From: Opitutales bacterium
GTDB taxonomy: Bacteria > Verrucomicrobiota > Verrucomicrobiia > Opitutales > UBA2987
Direction: 5' to 3'
DNA: 64,000 bases
Assembly (NCBI GenBank): GCA_021772535.1
Contig: JAJFLV010000025.1
Location: forward strand, 5,400 to 69,399
The position numbers were made by a program, and so were the translations under genes. Positions 10,954 through 42,834 of the stretch are shown here, in pieces. The notes under the pieces are model-generated. The model searched no databases, had not been told where the DNA came from, and was given only the letters and a program-made list of their open reading frames with translations. Each line of letters opens with the position of its first letter. Positions within the stretch are counted from its first letter, which is position 1.

Positions 10954-11212
10954 TGGTTGCCAAACTTAGCTCAATACTTCAAATTGACGCAGCAAATTAA
11001 GGTATTTTTCTCTTTGGAAGGCAATCTCCCCGTCATGGGTAATATCCCTGCTCAATCGGATCGCCTTTTAAACCATTTTAATGGATAAACCACCAGGGAA
11101 TTCAAATTTCCTGAATACCCAATAGGATAACTTCGAGGGTTTCGCTAAGATCATTTTTGGCTCTAACCGATAAGTATTTAAACTTATAGATCTTATCAAA
11201 TGTCTTAATATT

Positions 11213-11274
11213 CGAAACGAGTAAAAACAAAACTCTAATTGTTTACAATTCCTCGGTTCCTCTTCAAGGGTTTG
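11213..11274 (+). repeat. Putative recombination site A (left arm plus core)
   Basis: CGAAACGAG...AAACTCTAATTGTTTACAATTCCT-5nt-CCTCTTCAAGGGTTTG; homologous to sites B and C. Confidence 0.75.
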
Positions 11275-11522
11275 TGAATAAAAAGTAGAGTAAGTTTATT
11301 AACGATAAAACTTTTTTAGGATATTCTTAATAATCCGTCACAAGCTTGTACGGAAATTTCTGCATTTTTACTAACGTTATCATAAATGTTTTTGATGTTC
11401 TGAGAAATCGATAGTAACTTTTAAATATTCAACATAATCTAAAAACTTATGCAGATCAAGAACATGGACAACAACTTGGAGGTTTATAAGTTTTACACAT
11501 AGAAAGCTTATAGAAAATATTC

Positions 11523-11960
11523 ATGGGAGGTAAAAAACTTGCGGCAGGTATGCTAATTGTTAGTGCAGGTTTAGCAGGCATTGTTACATTAGGAATCGAG
11601 AGAACCCTTTTTAGGGAGCCATCAAGCTATATCAATGGTAAAGTTATCAAAGAATATGGTAATATAGAGCAAGCCATAGATGAAAATACACAATATGAAA
11701 AAGTAAATTATGGTATAATTGTCAAAACCGTTGATGGAAATTATACAATTAATATAAATTCAGAAGATCGAGCAGAGGATGGAGGGCCACAAGATATATA
11801 CAGTGTTGCAGCCACTATTCAAGTAGGGACGCGAATTAGATTCCCTAGACAACCCGGAAGCGTAATAAATAGGACCCGTGCAGACACATCGTCGGGTTTT
11901 TCATCTAGTAAAATAGGGATGCTTGATCCAGACGCAATTCAAATATTAGATCCAAATTAG
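11523..11960 (+). CDS. Hypothetical protein with N-terminal membrane anchor
   Basis: Hydrophobic N-terminus followed by a beta-rich domain; AT-rich codon usage. Confidence 0.65.
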   Translation: MGGKKLAAGMLIVSAGLAGIVTLGIERTLFREPSSYINGKVIKEYGNIEQAIDENTQYEKVNYGIIVKTVDGNYTININSEDRAEDGGPQDIYSVAATIQVGTRIRFPRQPGSVINRTRADTSSGFSSSKIGMLDPDAIQILDPN

Positions 11961-11967
11961 GATAAGT

Positions 11968-12855
11968 TTAAAATAATTTTTTGCAATCTATATAAAAATA
12001 TTCTCTTTGATTGGAAAAACGAACCATGGTTAATATCTTTAAAGTTATAATTACTAAAGAAACTTGAACAATTGTAAAAATAATTATAATTCTAAAATAT
12101 ATGGAGGCATATTGAACATGACTAAAAAATAAAAACATAAGAATAATTATTAAAATCGCAAACACTTTGCTGAGCGTAACTAGCCACTTCATTTTATTTT
12201 TCATGAATAATCTCCAGTGTTTTTCATAAATTTTTTTGTTATTATAATTTGTTGCTAATTTACAACATTCGAGTCGTTGGATAAAACGATGACAACTATC
12301 AGAATAAAATATTCCAAACGCCATCACGACTGACATTGTTATAACAAAAGCCTCATCTTTATCAATGGTAACGTTTTTGAAATAATAAAAAAGTCCTGCT
12401 CCTAATATAAAGTAATTTGCAAAGTACCCAATATTGCCTAAATGTTTCCAAGATCCAGGTAGTATCATATCTCTGAACTTTGCAGGTAAGACGTAATTAG
12501 CACCCAAGTGGACATTTGCCTTCTTTTCATGGTACTTTATTCTTTCTTGCCTCAAAACAAGGCAACTCTTAGAAAATAAGATGATATGAGAAATTTTGTG
12601 TGAAAGAAAAGACATAGCAAACCAACCAAGTAAAAATACTACTATCGTCATTCCTACCCCCGTTGCTGAAAGTTCCGGAGTGTCTTTTTTTCCGACTAAA
12701 AATCCTGAAATCGCAAAATAACCAGATAACACTGTTAGATATAGTTGAGTAACCCACTTAGACTGCTGTGTGTGTGAATTTAAACTATTCCATGATTCAT
12801 CGTATTCTCGATCGAGTAAGTAAATATAATTATGATCAGCATCCATATTTCCCAA
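11968..12855 (-). CDS. Multi-pass membrane protein (about 6 TM)
   Basis: Paired hydrophobic helices; 295-aa ORF in AT-rich DNA; start uncertain. Confidence 0.7.
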   Translation of the reverse strand: MGNMDADHNYIYLLDREYDESWNSLNSHTQQSKWVTQLYLTVLSGYFAISGFLVGKKDTPELSATGVGMTIVVFLLGWFAMSFLSHKISHIILFSKSCLVLRQERIKYHEKKANVHLGANYVLPAKFRDMILPGSWKHLGNIGYFANYFILGAGLFYYFKNVTIDKDEAFVITMSVVMAFGIFYSDSCHRFIQRLECCKLATNYNNKKIYEKHWRLFMKNKMKWLVTLSKVFAILIIILMFLFFSHVQYASIYFRIIIIFTIVQVSLVIITLKILTMVRFSNQREYFYIDCKKLF

Positions 12856-13000
12856 CCTATTTTTCCAATAGTCTTTTAAAGTACTCTTTTAATTTGAGAA
12901 AAGCCAATTAGAGCATCAATGTTCTTATGTCAACTAATATAATTTAGCATGTTCTGGTCCTAAATACTTAAAGCGAATGAAAGAAAAGCACTTACATTAA

Positions 13001-13252
13001 CTACCTTTTGTAAATCCTACTTCTTTTATCAAAAACTCTGACAAATACAATTTTCTCTTTATTATCAATATCAGCAAGAATCCTGTAATCCCCAATTCTC
13101 AGTTTATAATAATCTCCTTCAAAATGAGTTAGATACCTTGAGGGATATTCTGCTATCTTATCCAGCTTAATCAAAATTCTTTTCGCAATCTCCCTAGGCA
13201 GTTTTTCTAAATATTTGAGTGCTTTTTTATCCCACTCTATTGAATAAGTCAT
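13001..13252 (-). CDS. relE: RelE/ParE family type II toxin
   Basis: YSIEW...YKLRIGDYRIL...VFDKRSRIYK signature. Confidence 0.9.
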   Translation of the reverse strand: MTYSIEWDKKALKYLEKLPREIAKRILIKLDKIAEYPSRYLTHFEGDYYKLRIGDYRILADIDNKEKIVFVRVFDKRSRIYKR

Positions 13253-13446
13253 TTTCCAAGAATAATTTTCTTAACTTTTTGTTGAGATACGTAATCTGAT
13301 CTTTTTCTTGCTTCACTCAGCTCTTTTTTTGCCCAATCAGATAATTCTCCTTCATCATCTGATTCTCTTTTCAACAATAGGATATCTTTTATAAAAGCCA
13401 AATCTTTCTTTATTTCATCTAAATCCTTCGCTATTTGTTGTGCCAT
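13249..13446 (-). CDS. Cognate antitoxin (archaeal-type)
   Basis: ATGA overlap with relE; GELSDWAKKELSEARKR motif; paralogue at 33725. Confidence 0.8.
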   Translation of the reverse strand: MAQQIAKDLDEIKKDLAFIKDILLLKRESDDEGELSDWAKKELSEARKRSDYVSQQKVKKIILGK

Positions 13447-13538
13447 TTTAATTCTAATAAGAATTAGTTTATAAATTTATCCAACGAATTATAGATAAAT
13501 ATATATACAAGCACCACATAAATAATACACAAAGATTA

Positions 13539-13625
13539 GAACGAGTTAAAATTCAAAACTCTAAACGTTTACAATTCCTCCGAACCTCTTCAAGGGTTAT
13601 AGGAAATGTTAACTGTTGAGGGTTT
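13539..13625 (+). repeat. Putative recombination site B (full dyad)
   Basis: Left arm 13556-13579 and right arm 13601-13625 are inverted repeats (20/25 aligned matches) around core CCTCTTCAAGGGTT at 13585-13598. Confidence 0.8.
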
Positions 13626-13764
13626 ATCTCTTATTCCATAAAACTATAAAATTTATCAATAATATTATTCCTATAATAAATAATATAAGTCCAATAAATC
13701 CACCACTCAATATGCCTCTAACCCCAAATTCAACAACATCTTTAAACTCAGTCTCATTCATCAT
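13624..13764 (-). CDS. 46-aa single-TM protein (below ORF-track cutoff)
   Basis: Manual translation MMNETEFKDVVEFGVRGILSGGFIGLILFIIGIILLINFIVLWNKR; TATA-like TACTTATAAG upstream. Confidence 0.55.
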   Translation of the reverse strand: MMNETEFKDVVEFGVRGILSGGFIGLILFIIGIILLINFIVLWNKR

Positions 13765-13792
13765 ATAATCTCCAAATTATCTTATAAGTATA

Positions 13793-14035
13793 TTATCTAA
13801 CTCCAAGGGTTCTTCTTTTCTTATGTATTCCTCTATGTGTGCTCTTTTTCATAACTGATAGATTAGATTTTTGATTGTTGTCTTTATTGCCATCTTTATG
13901 ATGAACTTCATATCCTTTCCATATCCTTCCTCCAACTTTCTTTTCTGCTACTCTCTTATGGACTGAACGAGTTGTTCCATCACTATCTTTGAATACTTTA
14001 TATCCACTCTTATTTCTTCTAAACTTAAAAGCCAC
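13793..14035 (-). CDS. Small HNH endonuclease
   Basis: VHKRVA...EVHHKDGNKDNNQKSNL...HRGIH. Confidence 0.85.
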   Translation of the reverse strand: MAFKFRRNKSGYKVFKDSDGTTRSVHKRVAEKKVGGRIWKGYEVHHKDGNKDNNQKSNLSVMKKSTHRGIHKKRRTLGVR

Positions 14036-14080
14036 AAATATTAAGAGTAAAGATAATTTAAATATCTTCCTTAGCCTTAT

Positions 14081-14656
14081 TCAATTGAGTAAAGCAAAAA
14101 ACCAAGGAGTATATTTAGCAGCAATTAAACCTACCTGTTTTATTAACTCACCAGCATTTTCTCCACTTTCTTTTAACGTATTAAATTTTTCCAATATTCC
14201 AAATAATTTCTTTTTATTTGGTTCATCCAATTCATTATCGTTTTTTATTAATTGCCTTAGTACATTTATTTTAGAATTGTCCTGAACTTGAATTATAGGA
14301 GATTGGTTTCCTGTTGTTTGTGCAATTTGAAACTTCGAACTGTTGTTAACATTCGTTTGGCTATGAATATTCTGAGAAATTTCGGCCTTTTCCTTAAAAT
14401 AATCCCTTTCTCCCAAAATTACCTCCATACCTTTGTCTATTAATTTTATTTCATCATCTGATATCCAATGTTCGTTAATAAATAAAGGATTCTTCCAATT
14501 AATATATTCTTTTTTTATTAAGTATCTTAATAATTCTCTTAATTCATCTCCTTTTATATCACATCTTTTTTCCAATTGTTTAAATGAAATTTTTTCTTGT
14601 ACTTTATCTAACATTGCTAATACTTCCATACCATAAAGTAGTGTTTCGGATTCCAT
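14081..14656 (-). CDS. Hypothetical protein with N-terminal winged helix
   Basis: ISFKQLEKRCDI..ELRELLRYLIKKEYI wHTH-like segment; low-complexity linker; helical C-terminus. Confidence 0.65.
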   Translation of the reverse strand: MESETLLYGMEVLAMLDKVQEKISFKQLEKRCDIKGDELRELLRYLIKKEYINWKNPLFINEHWISDDEIKLIDKGMEVILGERDYFKEKAEISQNIHSQTNVNNSSKFQIAQTTGNQSPIIQVQDNSKINVLRQLIKNDNELDEPNKKKLFGILEKFNTLKESGENAGELIKQVGLIAAKYTPWFFALLN

Positions 14657-14667
14657 TTCTTTTTATT

Positions 14668-15120
14668 TTATATGTTACACTTAATAAACTCTTTTTTATG
14701 AGGAGTTGTTTCTCCCCACCATTCAATTTTCAATCCATTTTTTTCAATTATCTCATCAGTTAGATCAGTTCCTAAATCAAAAGACGAAACAGTATTTGGA
14801 GGAATAAAGTCACAATGGAATTTAACCCTATCATGAGAATCTACTTCTATTTCTCGAATTCTTTCACATTGCTCATCGACAAAATAGTCGGTACCATAAC
14901 TGTCCGTTTCAACACTCCAAAGGTAAATAAAAAAATTCTTCCCAGAAAAATCTGCTTTATTGTTAAAAAAGACTTCTAGTGTATAGTTTGCATTTAGTCC
15001 TTCTGAAATCTTACAACTAACATCTATATCAGTTGATGGTTTTAGTTGAGAAGGAATCCAAAGACCAATTAGTATAATTATTACTCCAAGAATTACTTGA
15101 ATTTTAATTTCTTTATTCAT
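14668..15120 (-). CDS. Membrane-anchored hypothetical protein
   Basis: N-terminal TM followed by a beta-rich domain. Confidence 0.65.
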   Translation of the reverse strand: MNKEIKIQVILGVIIILIGLWIPSQLKPSTDIDVSCKISEGLNANYTLEVFFNNKADFSGKNFFIYLWSVETDSYGTDYFVDEQCERIREIEVDSHDRVKFHCDFIPPNTVSSFDLGTDLTDEIIEKNGLKIEWWGETTPHKKEFIKCNI

Positions 15121-15251
15121 TTTTTAGGAATGTTCCAGGACCTCGATTTACATCTAGCGCATGAGATCGACAATTTTAGAGTTTTCCATTTGTGGTTACA
15201 CCTTTCACATTTACAAGAATATACTTTCCCTTTTTGAACTTTGTATGACAT
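15117..15251 (-). CDS. 44-aa zinc-ribbon protein (below ORF-track cutoff)
   Basis: Manual translation MSYKVQKGKVYSCKCERCNHKWKTLKLSISCARCKSRSWNIPKK; CxxC..W..CxxCxSxxW pattern; ATGA overlap with the next gene. Confidence 0.75.
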   Translation of the reverse strand: MSYKVQKGKVYSCKCERCNHKWKTLKLSISCARCKSRSWNIPKK

Positions 15252-15322
15252 ATTATTGCTTATACTACCAAAGTAGTAAAGTTTATATAGTTTATTGTTC
15301 TTTAGAATTTAAGCTAGTTCAC

Positions 15323-16081
15323 ATGAAAAAATTAATAATTAATGCTCCGATTAGAACGTTGATTTATCAATGTAATAAGTGGAGACCACACGCGATACCA
15401 ATAGATGAAATTGAAAATTTAATGGATGCTTTTGATAGACTTCCAAAACGTCACAAACTAAATGATAAAGATAAGTGGGCAGAATTTATAATTAAAAGAA
15501 ATAAAGTCATATTTGCTACAAGCTATTATCTAGCCCTAAGACCTCAAGAAGCGGTTGGTATACATCTTAATGATGTAACAAAAGATCAATTCGGTAGATA
15601 TTGGATTCAGATAAGAGGAGAAAACAATAAGAGAAAGAAGTCTAGGTTGTTACCAGTTCCTAAAGAATTAGCAATTATCTTTTATGGTTTCTTTAATGAG
15701 TTTAAGTATAAAGATTTCTGGAAAGATTCTAAGTGGGCCTTCCCTTCCTTTATGGGTAAGAATAAACATCTTGGTAGAGCAAGGTGGAATGATATCTTTC
15801 AGTTAGCGATAAAAGAAGCTGGTTTGTGGAGATCTCATCCGACAAAAGAAGGAAGAGGATTATATACAGCTCATTCTATAAGACATGCACGAGCGATACA
15901 TTTGCTTGAAGCAAGTAATTTCGATCTCTGGACCGTAGCAAATATCTTAGGTCATGGAAGAGTTGATGTTACTGCTTCTTACTTACATATGTGTCCTAGT
16001 ATTCAAGAACACATCTGTGATGTAATGAATGTTAGCTTAAAAGATAAGAAACATGGTCCCGTTATAGTCCCTAATTGTTAA
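15323..16081 (+). CDS. Tyrosine recombinase (XerC/D-like catalytic domain); probable start 15323
   Basis: LRPQE, K, HSIRH, LGH and Y catalytic residues; AAAGTTTATATA box upstream. Confidence 0.85.
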   Translation: MKKLIINAPIRTLIYQCNKWRPHAIPIDEIENLMDAFDRLPKRHKLNDKDKWAEFIIKRNKVIFATSYYLALRPQEAVGIHLNDVTKDQFGRYWIQIRGENNKRKKSRLLPVPKELAIIFYGFFNEFKYKDFWKDSKWAFPSFMGKNKHLGRARWNDIFQLAIKEAGLWRSHPTKEGRGLYTAHSIRHARAIHLLEASNFDLWTVANILGHGRVDVTASYLHMCPSIQEHICDVMNVSLKDKKHGPVIVPNC

Positions 16082-16313
16082 ATATAATTTTTATTTTTAA
16101 TTCTTTATGAAAAGCTCAGTCTGGATGTTGAAGTTACAAGAAGGAGAATTACGATTACATCCATTCTTGAAAGAAAAGAAAGATGAAATCAAAAGGAAAA
16201 AGAAAAGGAAAAAGTAAGATGATATATTTGAAAGTCCCCTTTATTGTTAAGGAAACTAAGAATAGTTACGACCTTGTCTGTCCTATTCATAAATTAGTTG
16301 TGGAGATTGCATA

Positions 16314-16727
16314 ATGGCTGCAGATATCTATAAATTTGTAGTTATAATAGCAGGATTAACAATTCTATTCACTTTATCAGGAATGGAAACTGGAATAGGA
16401 TTATTATTAGAAAAATCAGGAGTAGATATTGTAAAGAATCCTCAGAATATTGCTCTTAGTAATCTATCATCTACACTTATAGCAGTATTGGTAGCCGCAG
16501 GTGTTGGAGGTATTGCTATAGGATTCATAACAAAGACATCTCCCGTAAATTTCTTATTAGTAGGATACGCTACATTATTAATTAGTTTTGTAGCTGATAT
16601 TGTAGTTATAGCAAACTATGCGTTTAGCTTACAAGTTTGGGCTGGATGGGTTGTATTAGCTATTTTAACTCCCTTAGCATTTGGATACTTACACTCAGTT
16701 ATAAGTTGGTGGGGGGATAAAGCATGA
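16314..16727 (+). CDS. Multi-TM protein, putative viral membrane/structural protein
   Basis: About 4 TM helices; first of three co-oriented, closely spaced genes. Confidence 0.7.
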   Translation: MAADIYKFVVIIAGLTILFTLSGMETGIGLLLEKSGVDIVKNPQNIALSNLSSTLIAVLVAAGVGGIAIGFITKTSPVNFLLVGYATLLISFVADIVVIANYAFSLQVWAGWVVLAILTPLAFGYLHSVISWWGDKA

Positions 16728-16981
16728 GCTTCATAGAACCCTTAGACTTTTATCAGATCTTTGTAAATACTTTTGCAGGTAGTATCACAATCTTTAGTTT
16801 TGTTGGAATAGTTCTTATCTCTGGTTTAGCTGCAAGATTCAAGATGCCTAATATTGTCTTCGGAGTTATGTTAATTATATACGCAATGATTTTCTCTGAC
16901 TATGTCAAAGAATTATATTTAATAGCAATCCTAATAACTGGCTTCCTTGCGTTCAACGCATTTGCACAGTTATTCAAATAA
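16724..16981 (+). CDS. Small multi-TM protein, putative viral
   Basis: About 3 TM; ATGA overlap. Confidence 0.7.
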   Translation: MSFIEPLDFYQIFVNTFAGSITIFSFVGIVLISGLAARFKMPNIVFGVMLIIYAMIFSDYVKELYLIAILITGFLAFNAFAQLFK

Positions 16982-16983
16982 AT

Positions 16984-19398
16984 ATGGCTAAATCAATACC
17001 ACAACAACAGCAAAATCTTAGATTTGCGGCAGGATTACTAGGGCAACAAGAAACTCAAGTAGCAGCTAGGCAAGAAGAGATTAAGCAAGTTAAAGATCAA
17101 CTATTATTAGCTAGAAGTAAGTTATCAAGTCAGCAAGTTCTAAGAAATATAAGAGATCAAAACCAACAACAAAAGAGAAATCTAGCAGTTGCGCAAATTA
17201 GTCAAATAAGAGAAGAGGTAGAAAAGAAATCTAGAGAGATACAACCAATAGTTGCACAAATAACTGAAAGAAGAGGTTTAGTCCAGGAAGCCCAAGAACA
17301 ATTAGCTAAATTGGAAAAAGCAAGAAGAGAAGGGATTCCGTTATTAATAGAAGCAAGAGAGCAAGGAATTAATCAAGTTGTTCAATCTTTTGAAACAGAA
17401 CTGGGAAGACCTTTAACAGATGCGCAGAAACAAAATATTACTAAACAAATAATAAGCGGTCAAACTACTATTAAGATTCCCGCTACAAATCAATTCGGAC
17501 AACAAGACGGTAGGAATAATCTATTTTTCGAGAAGTTACCGACCATAGCACCACAATCTGTATTAGTTAATCAAAGTAATAAAGGTGTTTTATCTACAAT
17601 TGGAGAATCAATTACTAGCCGTTTTGCTCTTTCTGTTGGACAACCAACAGCAGCAGTTTCAAACATAACAAGTTTACCTCAATTAGTAAACGTAGTAGCA
17701 CAAAGAGAAAAAGATATTCTTGCTCAAAAGAAAGAGTTTGTTGCAAGAAATTTAAATGCTCCCATAAGAAACGTAACAGTAAATGAATTATTATCTACAA
17801 ATAAACAGATAGTTGAATTAGATGATAGAATTGGAGGGTTTGTTAAGGTAACACCAGAAGGTAATATAGAAAAAGATCTAACCAGAAGAATATTTGCGTT
17901 AAGAGATAGAGTTAGTGGAAATGTAGAAGTGATTAATACAAACGCTCCAAGATTAGCTGAATTAGTTGGAAGAGGAGTTCCCGCTCCTGCTGCAGCTGGT
18001 ATTGCTGGAGTTGATTTTCTAGTACAGCAATTAGATGAAAGATTTGTTGAACCAACTTTAGATAAAATAAGTATTCAAGAAGAATCAATATTAAGGAAAA
18101 AAATACCTTTTAGTTTTGGGGAATTGGCTGCTTTTATTGCTATTAGTCCTCTTATAGAAACCGCAGCTGCAGCTAGGGCAGTTTCCAAACAGAAGGCTAA
18201 ACCTAGTTCTCAGCAAGCTAACAAGAAAAAACTTGATGCCTTAAAGAAGAAATTAAAAGAATTAAGAGATGAGGAATTGAAAAAGTTTAGGGAAATACAG
18301 CGAAAAAACATAAAGAATAGTGCTTTAACTGAAACAGAAAAAGCTAATGCTTTATTGAGGTTAGACGCAACTATTTTAGAAGCTAAAACTGGTAGAAGTG
18401 TTATTACTGAATCTGGAGCAGTAGATCTTAGAGCAGTGGAAGAGGCCCTTGCTAGTTTAAGAAAAAGTAAAAAGAAACTACCAGAGATTTCAGAAGCCAC
18501 ACTAGAGTTTGCTTTAGAGAAAACACCCGCTCAATTAGAGGGTTCTGCTGCTGGATCTGGAATAGTCCAACAAAGTATATTCTTTAAAGAACCAGCAAGA
18601 CCTAAAATGGTTGGAGGAGAGGGAGTTGAAGAGAGCGAATTTGCTGGAACAGGACAGTTTGAGAGAACTGAAGAGTTAACTGGAATCGCTCAAGCAATTC
18701 AACCATTATCTAAAAGTAATTTATTCTTTAAGCAAGATACTAAACTTAATGCTTTACAAGATACATCTCAATCCCAATTACAAAGAACACAACAAAGCCA
18801 GGTACAAAAGCAATCTCAGAATGTATTAACATTACAAACTAATTTACTTGGACAATCAACTTCTCAAGTTCAGAGACAACAACAAAAACAGAGATTGGCT
18901 CAAGCACAAAGATCTGTACAAGCACAGAGACAATCTCAACTACAAGCATTAGGGCAAGGACAAGCATCTAAGTCACAAACAAGAAGTAAAGGAAAAAGGA
19001 AAATTAGGATCCCTCCACCATTTATTTTTTCTTTACCTGGAGGATTTGATAAAGAAGTTTTACTAAGCGCTGTAAGAAAAGTTAAAGGTGTGCAACCACA
19101 GATAAGACAAAAAGGGGCTTGGAGAGACTTAGGTAATCCAACTGACTTTCTTAAAGCTAAGAGAAAAGCAATTTCTTTTACAGATAAAAATCTTGCAGCC
19201 AGTTTTAGATTAAAGCTAGGAAGTAAGGTACTACCTATCGGTATCTTACCTCCTAGCTTTAGGCCCTCTAAATCAAATTCAAAAGTAGGTGTCGAGAAAC
19301 GAAGGTTTAGATTAGATTCTAGCTCGGAAGTAAATCAAATTTTAGGACTAAAGCGAAAAGCTAGTAAAAATTTAAATTTATTTAGGAAAAGGAGGTAA
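16984..19398 (+). CDS. 804-aa Gln/Lys-rich coiled-coil protein, putative virion-associated
   Basis: Long coiled coils, Q-rich tract, basic C-terminus (LAASFRLK...FRPSK...VEKRRFRLDS). Confidence 0.75.
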   Translation: MAKSIPQQQQNLRFAAGLLGQQETQVAARQEEIKQVKDQLLLARSKLSSQQVLRNIRDQNQQQKRNLAVAQISQIREEVEKKSREIQPIVAQITERRGLVQEAQEQLAKLEKARREGIPLLIEAREQGINQVVQSFETELGRPLTDAQKQNITKQIISGQTTIKIPATNQFGQQDGRNNLFFEKLPTIAPQSVLVNQSNKGVLSTIGESITSRFALSVGQPTAAVSNITSLPQLVNVVAQREKDILAQKKEFVARNLNAPIRNVTVNELLSTNKQIVELDDRIGGFVKVTPEGNIEKDLTRRIFALRDRVSGNVEVINTNAPRLAELVGRGVPAPAAAGIAGVDFLVQQLDERFVEPTLDKISIQEESILRKKIPFSFGELAAFIAISPLIETAAAARAVSKQKAKPSSQQANKKKLDALKKKLKELRDEELKKFREIQRKNIKNSALTETEKANALLRLDATILEAKTGRSVITESGAVDLRAVEEALASLRKSKKKLPEISEATLEFALEKTPAQLEGSAAGSGIVQQSIFFKEPARPKMVGGEGVEESEFAGTGQFERTEELTGIAQAIQPLSKSNLFFKQDTKLNALQDTSQSQLQRTQQSQVQKQSQNVLTLQTNLLGQSTSQVQRQQQKQRLAQAQRSVQAQRQSQLQALGQGQASKSQTRSKGKRKIRIPPPFIFSLPGGFDKEVLLSAVRKVKGVQPQIRQKGAWRDLGNPTDFLKAKRKAISFTDKNLAASFRLKLGSKVLPIGILPPSFRPSKSNSKVGVEKRRFRLDSSSEVNQILGLKRKASKNLNLFRKRR

Positions 19399-19405
19399 TT
19401 TAATC

Positions 19406-19606
19406 ATGGAAAAATCAGTTGGAATTTCTTGGATTTTCTATTATATTGGCGTTATATTTATTTCCTTTATGAATGGAGGGTTTTTTGCTACGGAACCAGT
19501 TATTAGTACAATAATATTCTCATTTGGAGCACCAATCCCTTTAGCGTTGATTGTGTTCTATATTTTAGAGAAACACGAGAAGAAGAAAGAGAGGGAAAAA
19601 GAGTAA
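19406..19606 (+). CDS. Small 2-TM protein
   Basis: GGAGG SD upstream; paralogue of the next gene. Confidence 0.65.
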   Translation: MEKSVGISWIFYYIGVIFISFMNGGFFATEPVISTIIFSFGAPIPLALIVFYILEKHEKKKEREKE

Positions 19607-19636
19607 GTTTATCTAGGAAAAAAGGATAATAAAACT

Positions 19637-19834
19637 ATGAAAAGATCACATCTAATTAGTTGGATTGTTTATTATATCTTTGTTATCTTAGTTTTTTTTA
19701 GAAGTGGTGGGTTTATCTGGCAAGAAGGCTGGAATGTTTATGGTTATATAATTGGTTCACTAATCTTTATATTTGGAGTTCCTATCATTCCCTCGCTGAT
19801 TCTCTTTTATATTTTAAGGAAATTCGATAAGTAA
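19637..19834 (+). CDS. Small 2-TM protein, paralogue of 19406
   Basis: Shared ISWIxYYI...GGF...FGxPI...LIxFYIL. Confidence 0.65.
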   Translation: MKRSHLISWIVYYIFVILVFFRSGGFIWQEGWNVYGYIIGSLIFIFGVPIIPSLILFYILRKFDK

Positions 19835-19923
19835 GCAATTATAGCTAGTTAAATATCACATATTCTTTTTGATTTGGGCTATTTCATAGTCATTTGTTAA
19901 TCTTTACATTAAACTATCCCAAA

Positions 19924-20511
19924 TCAATACATCCTTTCAGGAAAGAATCTTTGAGGAAGATTCCCTAGAATAGATCGCATTATCATTTTGTCCTTATGAG
20001 AGAAGACGTCGTTAGTTGCATAATCATCAGCAAGTTCTTTAGGAGTATGTCCTAAGTGTTGTGCTAACTTAAAGCCATCAACACCTAAAGCTAACATCCA
20101 AGAAGCAAAAGTCTTTCTTATATTATGACTAGAAAATTGATCTGGTTTATCTATTCCTGCTTTCTTAGATGCTTCTTTCAATCCAATGTTTAAAGCGTTG
20201 GTTGATAAGAACCTATGACTATCTATATTATTCTTTAACCAGTTCATAAATTTGGAAGAGACTGCAATGATTCTAGGTTCAGGGAATCTCTCCCCAAGTT
20301 TAGCTCGAACTTTTACATGCTCAATCACAATGTTGTTTCTTTCACTATCTAGATTTCTTTTCTTAATACCTCTACACTCTTCAATTCTTCTGCCTGTGTT
20401 AATCATTATCATAGTAGAATACCTTTGATTTTTATTGAGGTGGTCTAACATCTTCTCAAAATCACCAGGGAAAAAAAATCTTTTCTTAACTTCTTTTCTT
20501 TTGTTTACCAT
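19924..20511 (-). CDS. Minimal tyrosine recombinase (catalytic domain only)
   Basis: TGRRIEE, K, HNIRKTFASW, LGH, DYA; 195 aa. Confidence 0.85.
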   Translation of the reverse strand: MVNKRKEVKKRFFFPGDFEKMLDHLNKNQRYSTMIMINTGRRIEECRGIKKRNLDSERNNIVIEHVKVRAKLGERFPEPRIIAVSSKFMNWLKNNIDSHRFLSTNALNIGLKEASKKAGIDKPDQFSSHNIRKTFASWMLALGVDGFKLAQHLGHTPKELADDYATNDVFSHKDKMIMRSILGNLPQRFFPERMY

Positions 20512-20699
20512 TATTTTAATTCTAAAGCCTTCAAGATACGCTTTACGTTTTCATCTAAAAATACAACATCTTCTCTCGCGAGCTTCTGTAAGAATCTACC
20601 TAAAGATCCCCTACCTTCAAACCCAGCACGTTTTGCTTTATGGATTAGCCTTTGCTTATCTTCTGGGTAAAGCCATGCTTTAACTATTAGTTTATTCAT
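20511..20699 (-). CDS. Ribbon-helix-helix-like DNA-binding protein
   Basis: Beta-strand plus two helices pattern; overlapping operon. Confidence 0.55.
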   Translation of the reverse strand: MNKLIVKAWLYPEDKQRLIHKAKRAGFEGRGSLGRFLQKLAREDVVFLDENVKRILKALELK

Positions 20700-20959
20700 C
20701 CTAAATATTCCCCTGTCTTTTTCTTTACTTTGAAAAAACCTAAGTAATTCTTTATCTCTTCATGCTTCAACATCTTAAGAGCGAGATCTGCCAGGTCTAT
20801 TGTATTAAGAACCTGAGAAGTTAGTACTAGATCACCAACCGCCACCTGCTCATGGCCATTTAATGGCTGGCTATTAATAATAACAGGAGCTACTTGCTTT
20901 TTCTTGTTTGTTTTTTTTATTTCTTCCATTTGTTTTTTATTTCCCTTTGACTTAACCAT
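20696..20959 (-). CDS. Hypothetical protein
   Basis: Tightly packed in the operon with an ATGA overlap. Confidence 0.6.
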   Translation of the reverse strand: MVKSKGNKKQMEEIKKTNKKKQVAPVIINSQPLNGHEQVAVGDLVLTSQVLNTIDLADLALKMLKHEEIKNYLGFFKVKKKTGEYLG

Positions 20960-20965
20960 ATATAA

Positions 20966-21832
20966 TTATATAATTGTGCTATGATTAGTGTATGAACCCC
21001 CTTTATCCTTGAATTTCCGTAGTATATTGAATATTTGCGTGTTGCCCACGCTGATTTTATACTCTTTAAACAAATCTACCAATCTTTTTCTACTAACTTT
21101 AAGCTCTTTAGTCATAATATAGATCATTTTGTTTCTATCTTCATACTTACTAGCTGGATTGCTATCAAAATCTGCTTCCATTAGGGCCTTTTCTTTCAAT
21201 TCTTTGTATTTCTTTTCTATTTTTTCATCACCCAGAGCAAATTTCCCGTAGAATCTTCCTCTGTTTCGTGTGTGAACGGAACGATATTCATAAGTCTTAG
21301 AACCCAATAAGTATAATCTTTTCTTCTTAGATCTATTATAAACCATATAATAACCTCTTCTAGATTTGTTTTCATATACATTGATCAATACCTTAGCTCT
21401 AAAAACTGCAACATACTTGTCTAACAAGAAGAAAGTCGGCAATACTACAATCACAAATAAGTTTTTTTGTCTCATTTGCATCATTAATGATATTAACATT
21501 CTATTTATGCCTGAAAGAGAAGCTCTACTTGATAAACCAGTAAATGCTTCATCATAAATTACTACTTGACCTTTCTTAGCATTCATTATTTGTTTCTTGA
21601 ATTGTTCTGCAGAAAAACAAATTCTCTCAAGATCGAGTGTAGAATCTATAAATCTTCCAATTTGTAAAGCTAAAGTAGATTTTCCAGCACCCTCATTACC
21701 ATCAATACATAAAACAAAGTCCCTATCTTCCTTTTGTAAGTTTTCTTTAATATTACTTAATTCTTTATGTATTCTATCCTGCATAAAATATTCTACTTGT
21801 CTATCTGCTGGTTCATTAATTTTTAATATCAT
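20966..21832 (-). CDS. P-loop ATPase of the archaeal-virus/Zot-like type
   Basis: Walker A GNEGAGKS, Walker B VIYDEA, MRQKNLFVIVVLP..FLLDKY. Confidence 0.8.
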   Translation of the reverse strand: MILKINEPADRQVEYFMQDRIHKELSNIKENLQKEDRDFVLCIDGNEGAGKSTLALQIGRFIDSTLDLERICFSAEQFKKQIMNAKKGQVVIYDEAFTGLSSRASLSGINRMLISLMMQMRQKNLFVIVVLPTFFLLDKYVAVFRAKVLINVYENKSRRGYYMVYNRSKKKRLYLLGSKTYEYRSVHTRNRGRFYGKFALGDEKIEKKYKELKEKALMEADFDSNPASKYEDRNKMIYIMTKELKVSRKRLVDLFKEYKISVGNTQIFNILRKFKDKGGSYTNHSTII

Positions 21833-23418
21833 TTTGAACCCCCAAAGAAATCATAGCCACATTTCTTACAATACCAATTAATTCCATCTTGAGTAAATGG
21901 AGCAAATTCATCACCACATTTAACACACACAGGGTTTATTTCCTGTGGTTTAATCTTTTCCACATCATTTCTATCCTGTGTGTGTCTTAGTTTTTCATTA
22001 TTTTTAGACAATTTAACAAAATCATTAGCAGAAAACCCATCATACACACCCTTGTTTTCTTGAGGAAAAGTCTTTTCCTCATCATTTGTACCCTGTGTGT
22101 GATGTAATAATTCAGAAAATTCAGGTTTTATCTCAACATAATACATAGGTCTTCCACTACCAATTTCTAAATTTTTAAGAGAAACAACACCTAAGATTTC
22201 AAAGATTTTCATAGTTCTTCTTGCAGTTTCAGAAGAACAACTTAATTCAGACTGTATGTTTTCTGTTGTTAGTTTTCCTTCATGCTTTAGAAGTAATTTC
22301 AGAAACTCAAATCTATCATGAGGCATTGATGAAAATGTAACTGCTCTAACTATTTCTAAATCTTCAGATTTCAAAAAAGTTCTTCCATTAATTAAAGCAT
22401 TTCCTTTTGCAAGATTATAAAGAGAATTTATTGCTCTTGGTGGTTCTTCAATTATCGGAAAGTTATGCTGATAATCTTCTCCTTCTCCTTTCCAAATCAT
22501 TAAAGTACCTCTAAGTTTTGCTAGAAGTTGAGCATACTTGACAATTTCTTGTAAGATAAAAATATCTTGTTCAGCATTCCATTCTAAAGAACGAACTGGA
22601 TATTTCTTAAAATGATTATCAAGAAAGTTTCTTACAGCACCCCTACATATTTTTATTTTTTCTTCATAAGCATTTGAACGGAACATTTCAACATAATCCG
22701 CATTTTCTCTATTTTTTTCAGACATATTCAAAAAGAAAAGTCTATTACCAATCTTTCCCATGATGTTCCAAACATTAGCTCTTAGAGGAGTAGTTGCACC
22801 AATCCATCCAAACTTATAGTCTCCAGAATAACCTCTATGTCCATGAACTCCACTATCACGATTCAGGCCTTCGCCATCTAAAACTCTTGTTAAGATTGAA
22901 AAGTTATCAAGTAGTTTATCTTTTGGAGCTTCAAATAAAGGAGCAAGTTCTGGAGAAAGTAAGACCTTATTCCTCAATTTTGGTAATAAATCAACTTGTC
23001 CTAGATCATCAGCTTTTACATTTGCAGAATGAGATACAAAAGACTTAGGAGTAAAATCATCTGAAACATAACTTAAAGGGTGATTGTAGAAGAAAGATAA
23101 CACTGTTGTTTTCTCTCCGCTTGGAGCACCAACAAGATTAAGACTAGGACAACCATTTAAGTTCTTTAATGAAAGAGATGCGTATAGAGATAAACATGCT
23201 TTTGTTTCAAACCAGACTGAAGAAAAATTATCTTTAACATATTTCTCTAAACTTTGAATTTCCTTAATATCTTTTTTAGGAATATAATAACTAAATTCAA
23301 ATTTTGGACTTTCTATCTTTTTTAATGGTTCAGTCTTCAAGGCACCCATTGACTTAAGCTGTTTACGGGTTCTTTCTTTCATAAATGATGTTGCTTCTTC
23401 TTGAGTTATTTCTTTCAT
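21829..23418 (-). CDS. MCM-like AAA+ replication protein with C-terminal wHTH and Zn ribbon
   Basis: GAPSGEKTT, FTPKSFVSH, DLLPKL, LTRVLDG, WIGATTP; CVKC/CKKC tail. Confidence 0.7.
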   Translation of the reverse strand: MKEITQEEATSFMKERTRKQLKSMGALKTEPLKKIESPKFEFSYYIPKKDIKEIQSLEKYVKDNFSSVWFETKACLSLYASLSLKNLNGCPSLNLVGAPSGEKTTVLSFFYNHPLSYVSDDFTPKSFVSHSANVKADDLGQVDLLPKLRNKVLLSPELAPLFEAPKDKLLDNFSILTRVLDGEGLNRDSGVHGHRGYSGDYKFGWIGATTPLRANVWNIMGKIGNRLFFLNMSEKNRENADYVEMFRSNAYEEKIKICRGAVRNFLDNHFKKYPVRSLEWNAEQDIFILQEIVKYAQLLAKLRGTLMIWKGEGEDYQHNFPIIEEPPRAINSLYNLAKGNALINGRTFLKSEDLEIVRAVTFSSMPHDRFEFLKLLLKHEGKLTTENIQSELSCSSETARRTMKIFEILGVVSLKNLEIGSGRPMYYVEIKPEFSELLHHTQGTNDEEKTFPQENKGVYDGFSANDFVKLSKNNEKLRHTQDRNDVEKIKPQEINPVCVKCGDEFAPFTQDGINWYCKKCGYDFFGGSK

Positions 23419-23786
23419 TCTAAATCCTCCTTAACTGGCTTCGCATAAAGTATGGCCTCTTCTTCTGGTGTAAGTTCTGTTTGTTCAATTTCTTTGATTT
23501 TTTTAGTAGAAACCAGCTGAACAGGTTGACCATTTTCACTCCAGGATTTTGTAACAATAATAAAATCTCCACCCGTTGCCCATTTACAAATCTGTTTAAT
23601 CGTACCATAAGCTAGGTTTGATAACTTAGCAAGTTGGTATTTAGAAATAGGTTGTTTTGCTCTAATTAAGTTTAGAACAAGATTATTCCTTTCAACTACG
23701 CCATTATAATCCTTTTCTTGTAACTTTTTAACTAGGGTTTTAACGTCATGTTCGCTAAAAAAGGTATTAGGAGTCATACTGGGCAA
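23415..23786 (-). CDS. Winged-helix DNA-binding protein
   Basis: PISKYQLAKLSNLAYGTIKQI HTH; ATG start possibly at 23777. Confidence 0.7.
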   Translation of the reverse strand: MPSMTPNTFFSEHDVKTLVKKLQEKDYNGVVERNNLVLNLIRAKQPISKYQLAKLSNLAYGTIKQICKWATGGDFIIVTKSWSENGQPVQLVSTKKIKEIEQTELTPEEEAILYAKPVKEDLE

Positions 23787-23928
23787 AACCTCCCTTGAGA
23801 AATAGAATTATAGCTCTTTCGTAAAAAGCGACATATTTTTAAAGTTCTGTGATTTGTTCCCATTGTAAATTAAGAAGGGGTGATTGTCCTGTGAAATTTC
23901 AATCACCTCTTTGCTATGAAATTGAAGA

Positions 23929-24150
23929 TTATTTCTTGAGCTTCTTTATTCTCCCATCCATTGTATTTTTTGATTCGATGTTATCATGTTCCTCTAGCCA
24001 GATTACTAATAGGTTTTCAATCAGAGGTGAAACTTTTCCACCGAAGTAATTAATTTTATATCTAACTTTATCTATAATACTTCTACGAATTGAGATTGTA
24101 ACATTTACTTTTTTTTCCTCATTAGTCTTTTCTTTAACTTGCTTAGACAT
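23929..24150 (-). CDS. RHH/CopG-like regulator
   Basis: KVNVTISIRRSIID...VSPLIENLL; CAAAGCTTATAAG box upstream. Confidence 0.65.
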   Translation of the reverse strand: MSKQVKEKTNEEKKVNVTISIRRSIIDKVRYKINYFGGKVSPLIENLLVIWLEEHDNIESKNTMDGRIKKLKK

Positions 24151-24384
24151 ACATGATTCTATGTAAGATTACTTATAAGCTTTGTGGGTACAAAGATTTT
24201 TATCGACGATAAGAACTCTAAAATACCTCAATGTCATTTTAGAATAGTTCGGTTAAATAGACATAAATTTAAAATCTTCTTACATTAGTCTTTAACATGA
24301 ATTGGGGTTATATGGCTCTTCTTGCGCTGGCAATTGTAATATCAATTATTTCGATAGTTGTTATAAATTTATTTATCTAATTTA

Positions 24385-25533
24385 TTACTTGGTCCTAACA
24401 TACATTTTTTTATTCTTCTCAAAAACTTTAACTGTTGGAAACTTTTTCTTAAAACGTTTCTCCATTGCTATTGTTTTATCATTGATTCTTTCTTCAAACT
24501 TATCCATAAGATCTTTCATATCTCTTATTTTAGACTTTAAGTTTCCCACCTCAAGTTCTAATTTATGTTTTGTCTTTGGGTTGATCTCTTTAATCTTATA
24601 TACATTCTCCAATAAACTCTTAGCAACATCTTCTGAATTTATATGAGAGTAAATTGCAGTCATTCTACTATCTTTACTGTGTCCTGCAAATTTCTTATGT
24701 ATTTGCTCAGGCAATATTTTATACAACTCATTTAATCTACTATGTCGTAAAAGGTAAGGATATATTGGTCTGCTTAGTTTTGATTTCTTTGACAACCTTC
24801 TTAGAACCATAGACAAATAACTTTTATCTATGGATTTCTTTCTATCTCGAATTGTAGGAAATACATAATCGCTATTTCTTATGTTCTTAAAGGCCCATTC
24901 TTGTTTCCATCTTTTTAAGTGTACAACACTATCTTTAACCAAGATAGTTCTCGCGCTATCTTTCTTCTTAGAATATAAATGTACCTTGCATAATCCATCA
25001 TCAGTAAATTTCAAATCTTCCCACTTTAATTCCCTTATTTCTTGTGGTCTTGCTCCACTTTCATATAACAACGTAATAAGGGCTTTATCTCTTAACCTTT
25101 CTGCTGTTCTGAGCAAAAGCTCAAGTTCTTCTTCTGTTACTAAATTATTTTCATTAACCTTCTTTTCATTTAATCCATTTTGATTTTTTACATCAATAAA
25201 TTCATCAAACCTTATACTCCAATCTCTAAAGTTCCACCTCAAGAATTTCTTTATATGAATTTTAATTCCGTTCTTTGTCCATTTCTCTCTATCTGAATTA
25301 TTTAATAAACTTAGGTAATTTCTTAAATCTTCTAAATTTATGTCATCAAAATTCTTTTTGACAAGAAGCCTAAATTGTACAACATTTCTTCTTATATCTT
25401 CTAATTTCTTTTCTTTTGCATTTATAGAACAATAATCTATGAACTTATCCAATTTATTTTTTTCTAGAATATCAAGGTTTCTATATGCTTTTTTCAACTC
25501 CCCCCTTCCGTACTTAGGATAAACTCCTTTCAT
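24385..25533 (-). CDS. Tyrosine integrase IntA (archaeal-type, C-terminal coiled coil)
   Basis: SGARPQE, SKK, YLLRHSR, AGH, IYSH; adjacent to site C. Confidence 0.9.
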   Translation of the reverse strand: MKGVYPKYGRGELKKAYRNLDILEKNKLDKFIDYCSINAKEKKLEDIRRNVVQFRLLVKKNFDDINLEDLRNYLSLLNNSDREKWTKNGIKIHIKKFLRWNFRDWSIRFDEFIDVKNQNGLNEKKVNENNLVTEEELELLLRTAERLRDKALITLLYESGARPQEIRELKWEDLKFTDDGLCKVHLYSKKKDSARTILVKDSVVHLKRWKQEWAFKNIRNSDYVFPTIRDRKKSIDKSYLSMVLRRLSKKSKLSRPIYPYLLRHSRLNELYKILPEQIHKKFAGHSKDSRMTAIYSHINSEDVAKSLLENVYKIKEINPKTKHKLELEVGNLKSKIRDMKDLMDKFEERINDKTIAMEKRFKKKFPTVKVFEKNKKMYVRTK

Positions 25534-25559
25534 AAAAGAGAATAATAAAGGAAGTTTAT

Positions 25560-25630
25560 AAACCCTCGTTTGTTAACACTTACTTACCCCCTCTTCAAGG
25601 GTTTGACTTTTTGTAAGCGTTTACGGGTTT
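25560..25630 (+). repeat. Putative recombination site C (full dyad) between divergent integrases
   Basis: AAACCCTCGTTTGTTAACACTTACT-5nt-CCTCTTCAAGGGTTTG...TTGTAAGCGTTTACGGGTTT; same arm spacing as site B. Confidence 0.8.
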
Positions 25631-25681
25631 TGTGAAGGAAATGTGTATTAACTTTAAAAAACTCGTTTCGACTTAACAAAG

Positions 25682-26866
25682 ATGAAAGATCACTATCCCG
25701 AATATCGAAAAGAGAATATTACCACTGAGTATATTTATTCACATTTAGTTAAGGCTGAACAAGAAATAGTGGACAAATTTTTGACTTATTGTTCAATTAC
25801 CGCAGGAAAGGGAAAACTTAAAGACATCAAAACCAATATTCTTCAGTTTCGGGATATAGTTGAGAAACATTTTGAAAAAAATACGTTAAATGATGTCAGA
25901 GCCTATCTCGCAATTCTTAACCAATCGGGGCGAGCGAAATGGACAAAGAACGGAATTAAAATCCATGTGAAGAAATTTCTGAAATGGAAATTCAAAGATT
26001 GGTATGAAAGATTTAACGAACTAGCAGATATAAAGCTATCCAAAAATCCCAGAAACGAAGAGCGGATAAATGACAGCACTCTCGTAACAAAAGAGGAGTT
26101 ATCGAAACTGCTTCGCATAGAGGATACAATAAGGGGCAAGGCCCTCTTGTTCACATTATATGAAACAGCGGCTAGACCGCAAGAAGTCAGGCTCTTACGG
26201 TGGTCGGGAGTCGAATACCTGGAAGATAAAATTACAAAAATTTCTCTATATTCAAGGAAAACGGGGCATTCGAGAGCGGTCTTCGTTAAGGACGCAACCA
26301 TTCATCTTAAGAGATGGGAGCAAGAATATATCAATTCTGAAAGAAAATTAACAGACTATGTATTTCCGTCCAAGAAGGCTTCCCATGAACCAATGGGAAA
26401 GAGTGCTTTAGAGGTTTGGTTGCGGAGATTATCGCACAAAGCAAAGCTAGGCAGAACCATATATCCTTATTTGCTTCGCCACACCCGGTTAACTGAAATT
26501 TGGGATAAACTTGGTGATGTCATCGTCCACAGGAAATTTGCCGGACATAGCCAGGACAGCTCAATGACTTCACTTTACGTCCATCTCAGCGACAAGAATG
26601 TAAAAGATTCTATTTTAAGGAAAGTTTATCAAGTTGATGAATCACATCCAAGCAAAACACAGGAATTGGAAAACGAAAACAAGCATTTGCGGGCGGAAGT
26701 TAAGAACATGCGGTCAATCAAGGAAGAGTGGCATTTACTAAAACGGCACTTCCCAATGATCCAAGAGGTTTTTGCAAAAGCAAAATCTGTTGAACAGCTA
26801 GAGGCCGCTTATCGGAATAAAAGTGAAGAGGAGTTGGTTTTGCAAAATACAAGGGCTGCTCAGTAA
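25682..26866 (+). CDS. Tyrosine integrase IntB, paralogue of IntA
   Basis: Shares KWTKNGIKIH.KKFL.W, RPQE, YPYLLRH.RL and KFAGHS with IntA; visibly higher GC. Confidence 0.9.
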   Translation: MKDHYPEYRKENITTEYIYSHLVKAEQEIVDKFLTYCSITAGKGKLKDIKTNILQFRDIVEKHFEKNTLNDVRAYLAILNQSGRAKWTKNGIKIHVKKFLKWKFKDWYERFNELADIKLSKNPRNEERINDSTLVTKEELSKLLRIEDTIRGKALLFTLYETAARPQEVRLLRWSGVEYLEDKITKISLYSRKTGHSRAVFVKDATIHLKRWEQEYINSERKLTDYVFPSKKASHEPMGKSALEVWLRRLSHKAKLGRTIYPYLLRHTRLTEIWDKLGDVIVHRKFAGHSQDSSMTSLYVHLSDKNVKDSILRKVYQVDESHPSKTQELENENKHLRAEVKNMRSIKEEWHLLKRHFPMIQEVFAKAKSVEQLEAAYRNKSEEELVLQNTRAAQ

Positions 26867-33445: not shown

Positions 33446-33479
33446 ATTTTAAATCACCTCATCATTTTCAAACACAAAT

Positions 33480-41589: not shown

Positions 41590-42774
41590 CTAGGAAAGAC
41601 CGAAATCCCCGGGGCTAATTCCGAAAAACTCTTCCACCCTTTTGTTATCTGTAATCAAAACCTTGTAGTGCCGTCGAATCATGCTCAGTGATGTAGCACA
41701 TTGATAGCAGACCTCCCCTATTGGTTCTATTTTACTCAAATTACTGATAAACGTGTGACGCATGATGTCATTCTCTTTCGCTTTTTTATCAAGTAAAATC
41801 TCCTGCTTTACGGCACGAAATTTTCTCTTTAAATTTGTCGGAAGCATCGGAAAATCTTTTGGATGAGACGCAAAGAATTTTATCCAGGCCATTAAATTGT
41901 CCTGAATCTTGATCTCACGGGTTCTTTTTCCTGTTTTTTCAATTTCCTCAGAGACGATGATTTTCCGATCCACCAAATCCACAAACTTCCATCCATATTC
42001 TGAGTTCTTCCAAAATTGTTTCATTTCCGCCTCTGGTCGCATCCCTGTAAAAAACCCCCAGACAAACCATGGGGCACAATTCTTCTCAATGGCTTTCTTA
42101 ATGAGATTTTTTACCTCTGGAACCGTGCATATTTCCGGTCGACTCCTTTTTTGTTTGGGACGTTCAATATGGCTTAAAGGATTTATGGAAATTGGAGGAT
42201 TTTCGAGCTTCGAAATGTCTTTGGCTTCATTCGCTAGCCATCCAAAAAAATGATTGAGGACCTTATAGCGGTGAAAGACATGGTTGTTTACTGCAAGATA
42301 TCGGTCTAATTCCTTCCACTCGATTTCAGATGGTTTCCGAGATCCGAACACTTCTTTGAAAGCATTGAGGTAATACAATATTTCCTGAATTGTTTTAACG
42401 CTTCTACGCTTCTTTTTGCGATTGATAAAATCTTCCACATATTCGTCTAAATAAAGTTCATGGCGCGTATCGCGGTAATGTTTGATGAACCAATCTACAA
42501 TTGTCAGGAGGTCTTTTCCTTGAGCATCAGGATTGGATGTGCGTCGCAATTTAAGAAGGGCGGCTTCAGCAACTTGTATTTCATCAGCTTTTAATCCACC
42601 ACCATGATACTCTCGAATAAGACGCATCCTATCTTGCTTAGCGGTTTCTTCGGTAGAATGTTTTCGCCGGTATCGTCCACCATCGGGCAGCGTGCAGGAT
42701 AACAGCCAAAACGGATTACCCGTCGAATAATCATATTTTTTGATTTTGGGATTGAGGGGCTTCATTTCTCCCAA
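41590..42774 (-). CDS. Bacterial phage-type tyrosine integrase of the island
   Basis: FTGMRPE, K, IMRHTFIS, HY; N-terminal arm-binding-like region; abuts the tRNA att. Confidence 0.9.
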   Translation of the reverse strand: MGEMKPLNPKIKKYDYSTGNPFWLLSCTLPDGGRYRRKHSTEETAKQDRMRLIREYHGGGLKADEIQVAEAALLKLRRTSNPDAQGKDLLTIVDWFIKHYRDTRHELYLDEYVEDFINRKKKRRSVKTIQEILYYLNAFKEVFGSRKPSEIEWKELDRYLAVNNHVFHRYKVLNHFFGWLANEAKDISKLENPPISINPLSHIERPKQKRSRPEICTVPEVKNLIKKAIEKNCAPWFVWGFFTGMRPEAEMKQFWKNSEYGWKFVDLVDRKIIVSEEIEKTGKRTREIKIQDNLMAWIKFFASHPKDFPMLPTNLKRKFRAVKQEILLDKKAKENDIMRHTFISNLSKIEPIGEVCYQCATSLSMIRRHYKVLITDNKRVEEFFGISPGDFGLS

Positions 42775-42830: not shown

Positions 42831-42834
42831 TACC

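Follow-up and report, generated by a model that had tools for sequence, protein, structure and literature searches.

A 64,000-nt stretch of DNA from an Opitutales bacterium (hereafter the window; GenBank assembly GCA_021772535.1, contig JAJFLV010000025.1, positions 5,400 to 69,399) contains three recombination sites, A, B and C, which bound two stacked units, A-B and B-C. Two integrases, IntA and IntB, lie on either side of site C. The block from 11 to 25.6 kb has a GC content of 28-36% compared to 50.6% for the genome, and the whole stack is inside a bacterial tRNA-Pro island of ~61 kb. We consider it reasonably probable that this island had captured an uncut attachment site (attP) and that the attP served as landing pad for an archaeal element which arrived later, inside the bacterium. 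Provided that the junctions are real, the sequence documents the site-specific integration of an archaeal element into the chromosome of a bacterium. The interest of the locus lies in this cross-domain event and in a new integration target, and not in the twin integrases.

The core of the sites, CCTCTTCAAGGGTT, is 14 nt long and was found as exact copies at 11259, 13585 and 25590, all on the + strand. No further copy was present in the window at up to two mismatches. A third-order Markov estimate gave 0.001 expected copies in the window and 0.06 in the genome. A fourth exact core is located on contig C190, in a site (C190:4344) of the same type as A. The 7-nt overlap TCTTCAA is central in each site with a 33-nt half on either side, and the spacings are 2326 bp (A-B) and 12005 bp (B-C). 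The sites and units are:

11228..11300, + strand: site A; Y-type left arm, overlap at 11261-11267, X-type armless right half.
11037..11349, + strand: C190-homologous stretch around site A, 73% over 316 bp; the downstream genes differ.
13554..13626, + strand: site B; Y arm on the left, overlap at 13587-13593, the right half being the far-end arm of the IntA element.
25559..25631, + strand: site C; IntA-side arm on the left, overlap at 25592-25598, IntB-side arm on the right.
11261..13586, no strand: A-B unit, 2326 bp, integrase-free; its circle junction would be armless (13/33).
13587..25591, no strand: B-C unit, a 12,005-bp integrative virus-like element of 29-35% GC.

An arm precedes each core by 5 nt, and inverted arms at B and C end 29 nt past the core GGG. 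The left halves of A, B and the C190 site are one arm type (28-29/33 identical). The inner arms of the B-C unit (B-right and C-left, 23/33 identical) are a second type and C-right is a third, with the IntB-side arm of C matching the arm of a related bacterial site in genome G008 at 24/33 positions. The preliminary description of this DNA, made from its letters alone, had recorded the three direct cores, the position of the arms, both spacings and the likeness of the inner arms, and all of these were confirmed. Site A has no right arm and its symmetry of 13/33 is at chance level. Its right half is 31/33 identical to that of the C190 site, yet is not arm-like. The right arm of site B touches the stop of a 46-codon open reading frame (ORF). 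Scanning the own genome and 80 kb of G008 with a half-site weight matrix revealed no TCTTCAA overlap with a further arm next to it.

When the B-C circle was rebuilt from C-left and B-right, a symmetric attP was obtained (23/33; 0/2000 shuffles). The rebuilt empty site (B-left and C-right) was also symmetric (21/33; 0/2000 shuffles). B-C is therefore read as a complete element inserted into a G008-like site: it has direct cores at both ends, an integrase beside one end and arms in its rebuilt attP, as expected of a Campbell-type integrative element with a tyrosine integrase.

The core is the exact chromosomal target of an integrase family of Pacearchaeota. This target is one end of a hairpin element, in which the core opens a long hairpin that is followed by GGGNAAAAAGAGGTGA. 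The hairpin pattern was present in 228/301 genomes of the Pacearchaeota order, mostly as a single copy, and the reversed-pattern control gave 0. The reverse complement of the core is present without mismatch in all seven loci fetched for the TTGAAGA overlap, which come from six genomes. Elements of 10.4, 8.2 and 5.1 kb in genomes G419, G154 and G273, respectively, are flanked by direct AACCC-N7 copies and carry IntA/IntB homologues in the same layout as the B-C unit. The flanking copies are about 250-375 nt upstream of one gene, which we take to be scpA. The rebuilt attP of each of these three elements is symmetric (24, 20 and 22 of 33; 0/2000 shuffles) and the rebuilt attB is not.

In 24 aligned copies of the hairpin 11 of 15 predicted pairs had changed on both sides. 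A TATA-like box faces the element from the scpA side, so the element is likely to be an unannotated small RNA. RNase P and the signal recognition particle (SRP) RNA were rejected as identities as there was no Rfam match. That three quarters of the Pacearchaeota genomes sampled share a conserved hairpin element without an Rfam entry is of interest in its own right. One example is:

L125:5394-5487: hairpin element; further copies at L138-L181 and L207-L266.

Read from the TATA-like box the hairpin starts with an anti-Shine-Dalgarno-like stretch. Second copies at L169 and L178 (G179:C4 and G180:C15) have no TATA-like box and are located before a different gene. The tRNA-Glu anticodon was rejected as the origin of the core; site C resembles it, but the exact core was found in the archaeal hairpin element. 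Many integrases of the family sit at tRNA ends, and other branches do target these ends. At L129 (G064:C1:627000-634500) a family integrase lies at a tRNA-Glu 3' end with two core copies downstream, and the cores enclose a 5.4-kb element and a 1.6-kb integrase-free unit.

The two integrases flanking site C, with their GC content at third codon positions (GC3), are:

24385..25533, - strand: IntA, integrase of the B-C element; GC3 0.26; an archaeal-type TATA box overlaps the att arm.
25682..26866, + strand: IntB, resident integrase; GC3 0.40; 57% ortholog in G008.

Both are intact tyrosine recombinases, 43% identical. R, K, Y (replacing the first H), R, H and Y occupy the catalytic positions in IntA, IntB and the G008 ortholog. 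IntA homologues were found in 21/401 genomes of the order of G064 (Candidatus Pacearchaeota). In the host order IntA/IntB homologues were found in 2/401 genomes, G000 and G008. Named IntB homologues include 'Candidatus Pacearchaeota archaeon', 'archaeon' and one planctomycete. Judged by sequence, the family is archaeal in origin. The best NCBIfam match of both proteins is XerA_Arch at 86-88 bits, against a cut-off of 220. A promoter scan before IntB was at chance level. IntB and helicase queries gave no match in viral contigs, and an alignment search gave one distant locus.

Clades were tested on a 30-row tree with unnamed database proteins left out. IntB groups with its G008 ortholog (support 100/99). 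The approximately unbiased (AU) test rejected one clade of the six integrase copies from bacterial genomes (p 1e-5) and also a clade of IntA and IntB (p 1e-5). The two had been described as paralogous divergent integrases serving one system. They are divergent and intact, but only loosely paralogous and not sister sequences. Service of one system by the pair did not stand either, given the rejected clade and the presence of IntB alone in G008. The head-to-head layout is a by-product. The G008 ortholog has a GC3 of 0.61, and five genes of host type on the right of the stack have values of 0.46-0.58.

The sites of four other bacteria are uncut. In G008 the exact core is 82 nt upstream of the IntB ortholog, and this was the only copy of the degenerate core pattern in that genome. 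An island module precedes this site and recurs at the start of contig C158. Symmetric two-armed sites were found in G008, L038, L041 and L043 (20, 24, 20 and 19 of 33, respectively). The L041 and L043 cores resemble the tRNA-Glu 3' end used in archaea, but no tRNA accompanies them. The integrase genes beside these sites have a GC3 of 0.50-0.70 compared to 0.15-0.45 in three archaeal ones. RpoB identity of the host is 85% with G008, 78% with an Opitutaceae bacterium metagenome-assembled genome (MAG), 70% with the host of L038 and 54% with Bythopirellula, and we take the host to be an Opitutales-like verrucomicrobium. An uncut site with an integrase is present in five bacterial genomes; these appear to derive from at least two separate transfers, and probably from three or more. 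Within the G008 island, 16 kb from the IntB ortholog, is a gene in two reading frames which we take to be integron-integrase-like (L017:15300-16400, G008:C2:603348-604334).

The following order of events is proposed. Integrases of the family would normally act in Pacearchaeota, joining a symmetric two-armed attP to an armless chromosomal core, in this case AACCC-N7-GG at one end of the hairpin element. An ancestor of the island would have captured IntB together with an uncut attP, by a route other than IntB's own reaction because the bacterium has no target; no hairpin element was found in its genome (90% complete). This capture would be the enabling step, as the uncut attP holds a perfect target core and could act as a landing pad. 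B-C, a low-GC archaeal element that shares the 7-nt overlap and brings IntA, would have entered the bacterial cell later, and IntA would have integrated it there, splitting the pad into B and C. IntA appears to read off the purine strand of the overlap, like the hairpin-targeting archaeal integrases, and IntB off the other strand. Facing opposite ways relative to the overlap, they would therefore end head to head. The integrase-free A-B unit probably arrived earlier via an armless site, in trans. The integration is placed in the bacterium because GC content steps from 0.29 to 0.39 across site C and because of the orthology with G008. The sites, the archaeal target, the uncut sites of the four other bacteria and the contiguity are shown by the sequences, and we infer from them which enzyme acted, where and in what order.

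IntB and its site might instead be a domesticated integron-like platform, in which a fixed IntB inserts circles with armless sites and harvests archaeal DNA. IntB does lie outside the units and beside the newest one, with all six catalytic positions intact and proportions of nonsynonymous and synonymous differences from the G008 ortholog (pN/pS) of 0.31/0.91. The five bacterial genomes with an uncut site and integrase, from separate transfers, also fit a platform, as do the armless C190 site, which leads into a different gene than site A, and the stacked integrase-free units with armless ends in archaeal genome G069. However, G008 (96% complete, 3 contigs) and G061 have one site each and no array, IntB homologues were found in just 2/401 genomes of the host order and the B-C unit brings its own integrase. 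Sites A and C fold no better than shuffles (z -0.7 to 0.4) and are not attC-like; only B folds better (z -2.7), which is expected from its two arms. Scans with the site pattern found 37 metagenome and 2 viral stretches, none of which has a relative of IntA or IntB or, by eye, the arm layout. A platform of this kind is considered unlikely, though IntB may still play an active part. The wider idea that verrucomicrobial and planctomycete bacteria repeatedly domesticated Pacearchaeota integrases with uncut attP sites, as a separate-origin integron analogue taking up whole archaeal viruses and armless toxin-antitoxin units through site-specific recombination, is tentative and doubtful.

The reading of a landing pad entered by an archaeal element agrees with the content of B-C, which is a low-GC archaeal virus-like element. 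Its genes other than IntA include:

15323..16081, + strand: small tyrosine recombinase IntD.
16314..19398, + strand: hydrophobic proteins of 137 and 85 aa and a Gln-rich protein of 804 aa, a putative structural module.
19924..20511, - strand: small tyrosine recombinase IntC.
20966..21832, - strand: P-loop ATPase, with homologues in 16/396 Pacearchaeota-order genomes, up to 60% identical.
21829..23418, - strand: probable replication helicase with 717 relatives.

Atlas look-alikes of the structural-module proteins are 92-100% viral, and a separate comparison gave 148 relatives. The predicted fold of the 137-aa protein (predicted local distance difference test, pLDDT, 88) had no match at E 0.001 or better. 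The helicase function is proposed because some relatives are fused to primase domains. No capsid was recognised by a PHROGs scan, which left out two ORFs of 65-66 aa. When 24 unit proteins were compared by tblastn to seven related archaeal contigs, significant matches were obtained only for the ATPase, the helicase and IntD. The ATPase homologue is carried by Pacearchaeota contigs L197-L202, three of which, examined in detail, encode short two-helix proteins that resemble the capsids of spindle-shaped viruses.

The A-B unit encodes no integrase. Its genes are:

11523..11960, + strand: 145-aa protein with a 29% homologue in the G008 island (pairwise, E 7e-14).
11968..12846, - strand: 292-aa hydrophobic protein of no family.
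13001..13446, - strand: RelE/ParE toxin (13001-13252) and an upstream 65-aa probable antitoxin (13249-13446), so named from its position beside the toxin.

No other homologue of the 145-aa protein was found among 21 candidates.

Stacking at this target also occurs in archaea. G069 has three cores, between which lie two units without an integrase (747 and 724 bp); their junctions are armless and one unit is read as a toxin-antitoxin pair. G205 has a 158-bp scar at this site. A survey of 45 loci gave 5 extra cores, all of them upstream and none on the opposite strand, and 2 came from loci selected because of their integrase. A further 60 loci were picked without regard to an integrase, mostly on larger contigs and from among the hairpin-pattern matches listed; their upstream 439 kb contained 0 extra cores. 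Of these loci, 18 were re-read from the 45-locus set. Stacking as a common archaeal state was rejected on this result. Stacking happens but is rare.

Tandem units in archaea raise the question of whether A, B, C and IntB were assembled as a stack in an archaeon, or on an archaeal plasmid or virus, before the whole block moved into the island. Like archaeal flanks, the X half of site A lacks an arm and is rich in AT. Archaeal integrase genes of 42% GC exist (L039), and the 39% GC of IntB need not reflect amelioration. Against this, the GC step falls across site C, IntB and its arm are orthologous to G008 and adjoin the same island module, and the hairpin that ends archaeal arrays is absent. Transfer as a block is thus quite unlikely.

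The preliminary description had proposed a non-tRNA att family whose units stack in tandem, integron-like but lacking IntI and attC hallmarks. The family is real, as the same site architecture is found beside homologous integrases in other genomes, and tandem stacking is seen. The missing hallmarks were borne out by the folding results and by the absence of an integron-integrase model among the NCBIfam matches of IntA or IntB. An integron-like array as a general state did not hold: no arrays were found in other bacteria, G008 and G061 have single sites and the 60 archaeal loci gave no extra core. The description had overlooked the natural target, the 61-kb island around the stack and the fact that core, integrases and cargo are archaeal in origin.

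The right end of the island is marked by:

41590..42774, - strand: integrase-like gene of the enclosing bacterial island, unrelated to IntA/IntB.
42832..42882, + strand: tRNA-Pro(GGG) 3' fragment, the right island end; the intact tRNA is on contig C5.

No intact tRNA was found in the window and there were no Rfam matches in 9000-36000. The end of C5 overlaps the start of C158 by an exact 141 nt, closing the tRNA-Pro island. Contiguity was compared with Logan contigs of three runs, X1-X3, among them a separate assembly of the probable source run. In the probable source run 11267-20879 (depth 8.55) and 20861-28233 (depth 8.15) are each one piece, and the second spans IntA, site C, IntB and flank. 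The depth of the left flank is 10.7.

An assembly or binning chimera could in principle have joined an archaeal element to a bacterial contig via the shared core. The separate assembly does break at site A, and only there, in a 38-nt repeat common to A and C190, and other contigs from the biofilm match the unit in part. Sites B and C, however, lie within single contigs of that assembly, depth is even across the unit and its flanks (8-11 in X1, similar in X2) and the C158-C5 overlap closes the island. A chimera is very improbable.

Several points weigh against the landing-pad history itself. Only one occupied pad was seen. The circle and empty-site joints suggested as a check in the preliminary description were not found in the contigs of the three runs, and contigs drop rare variants; all three runs are from one study. 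The hairpin-using integrases of G419, G154 and G273 are not sisters of IntA/IntB in the tree, and the case for specificity therefore depends on the identity of the sites. Only 1/401 genomes of the archaeal phylum had the helicase. Tetranucleotide usage gave no separation, with r 0.18 for B-C to both archaea and host. The 145-aa gene of A-B is present in the G008 island too and site A has a long flank in common with C190. Site A may therefore be old island backbone and not a fresh insertion.

Other features of the island and genome were noted. At 32666-34294 in the window are a methyltransferase, a second RelE-type pair (33480-33913), which shares 65% identity with the toxin of A-B, and a 94-aa gene, with promoter or ribosome-binding motifs of archaeal type. 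Duplicates of the methyltransferase and the 94-aa gene occur elsewhere in the island (C5 end, C158 start). Genes for a HerA/VirB4-like ATPase, GrpE, Hsp70 and vWA proteins are clustered at 35804-41084. A second dyad, AAACCC-TCGTCAC-GGGT, was found in G000 at C158:4626, C251:17780 and C190:210 and could be another site of this system. Its copies on C158 and C251 come shortly after a short ORF, a homologue of which stands before the G008 site. Those on C158 and C190 are 12 and 4 kb, respectively, upstream of an A-type site in the same orientation. This dyad (overlap TCGTCAC) was absent from the five relatives searched and its copies are mostly not symmetric. A repeat extends up to about 230 nt to its right (C158:4657-4818; C251, C191, C211, C57 and C140) and is present, whole or in part, at seven places in the genome, some beside RHS-like fragments.

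The system differs from known ones to varying degrees. XerA acts at one 28-bp dif site with a 6-bp spacer. Here the XerA_Arch score is far below the cut-off, the overlap is 7 nt, the halves are 33 nt and there are four copies. The spindle-shaped-virus-like Pacearchaeota contigs are similar in their ATPase, up to 60% identical, and in a long Gln/Glu-rich protein close to it, but no two-helix capsid gene is recognisable in the B-C unit. No literature on this target or transfer was found in the searches made; the DPANN-virus papers Wu 2024 and Zhou 2025 (Nature Microbiology) may cover the elements, and the available part of a provirus survey (PMC13573593) gives no Pacearchaeota detail. According to the available part of a preprint (10.64898/2026.08.12.739948), an Asgard satellite is joined to a bacterial genome in reads, with the mechanism unresolved there.

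Comparison with the three closest systems is based on the available portions of the papers cited. Integrons can move archaeal cassettes into bacteria (Ghaly et al., PMC9668308), and integrons, archaeal ones included, share with this locus a fixed integrase, units in direct order, toxin-antitoxin cargo and an archaea-to-bacteria route. The locus differs in having no IntI match, no attC fold, double-stranded dyads with a 7-nt overlap and multi-gene units, one with its own integrase. In E. coli resident prophages supply attB to later phages (Nakamura et al., PMC8112680). There too a resident element supplies the target core and clusters form, but in our case an uncut attP accompanied by an integrase serves as the pad, and the donor comes from a domain other than that of the host. 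Archaea are known to have several elements integrated in tandem at a single locus, with integrase-less remnants (Badel et al., PMC8371274), with the integrase by attL, short direct cores and stacked units, some integrase-free, as here. The differences are the hairpin target in place of a tRNA and a bacterium without the target. The locus supplies a testable integrase-site pair from uncultured Pacearchaeota, which may work without archaeal host factors. The sites make up a genuine att family. Their stack represents a new form of tandem site-specific integration, unusual for crossing domains, which suggests site-specific gene flow between two domains of life.

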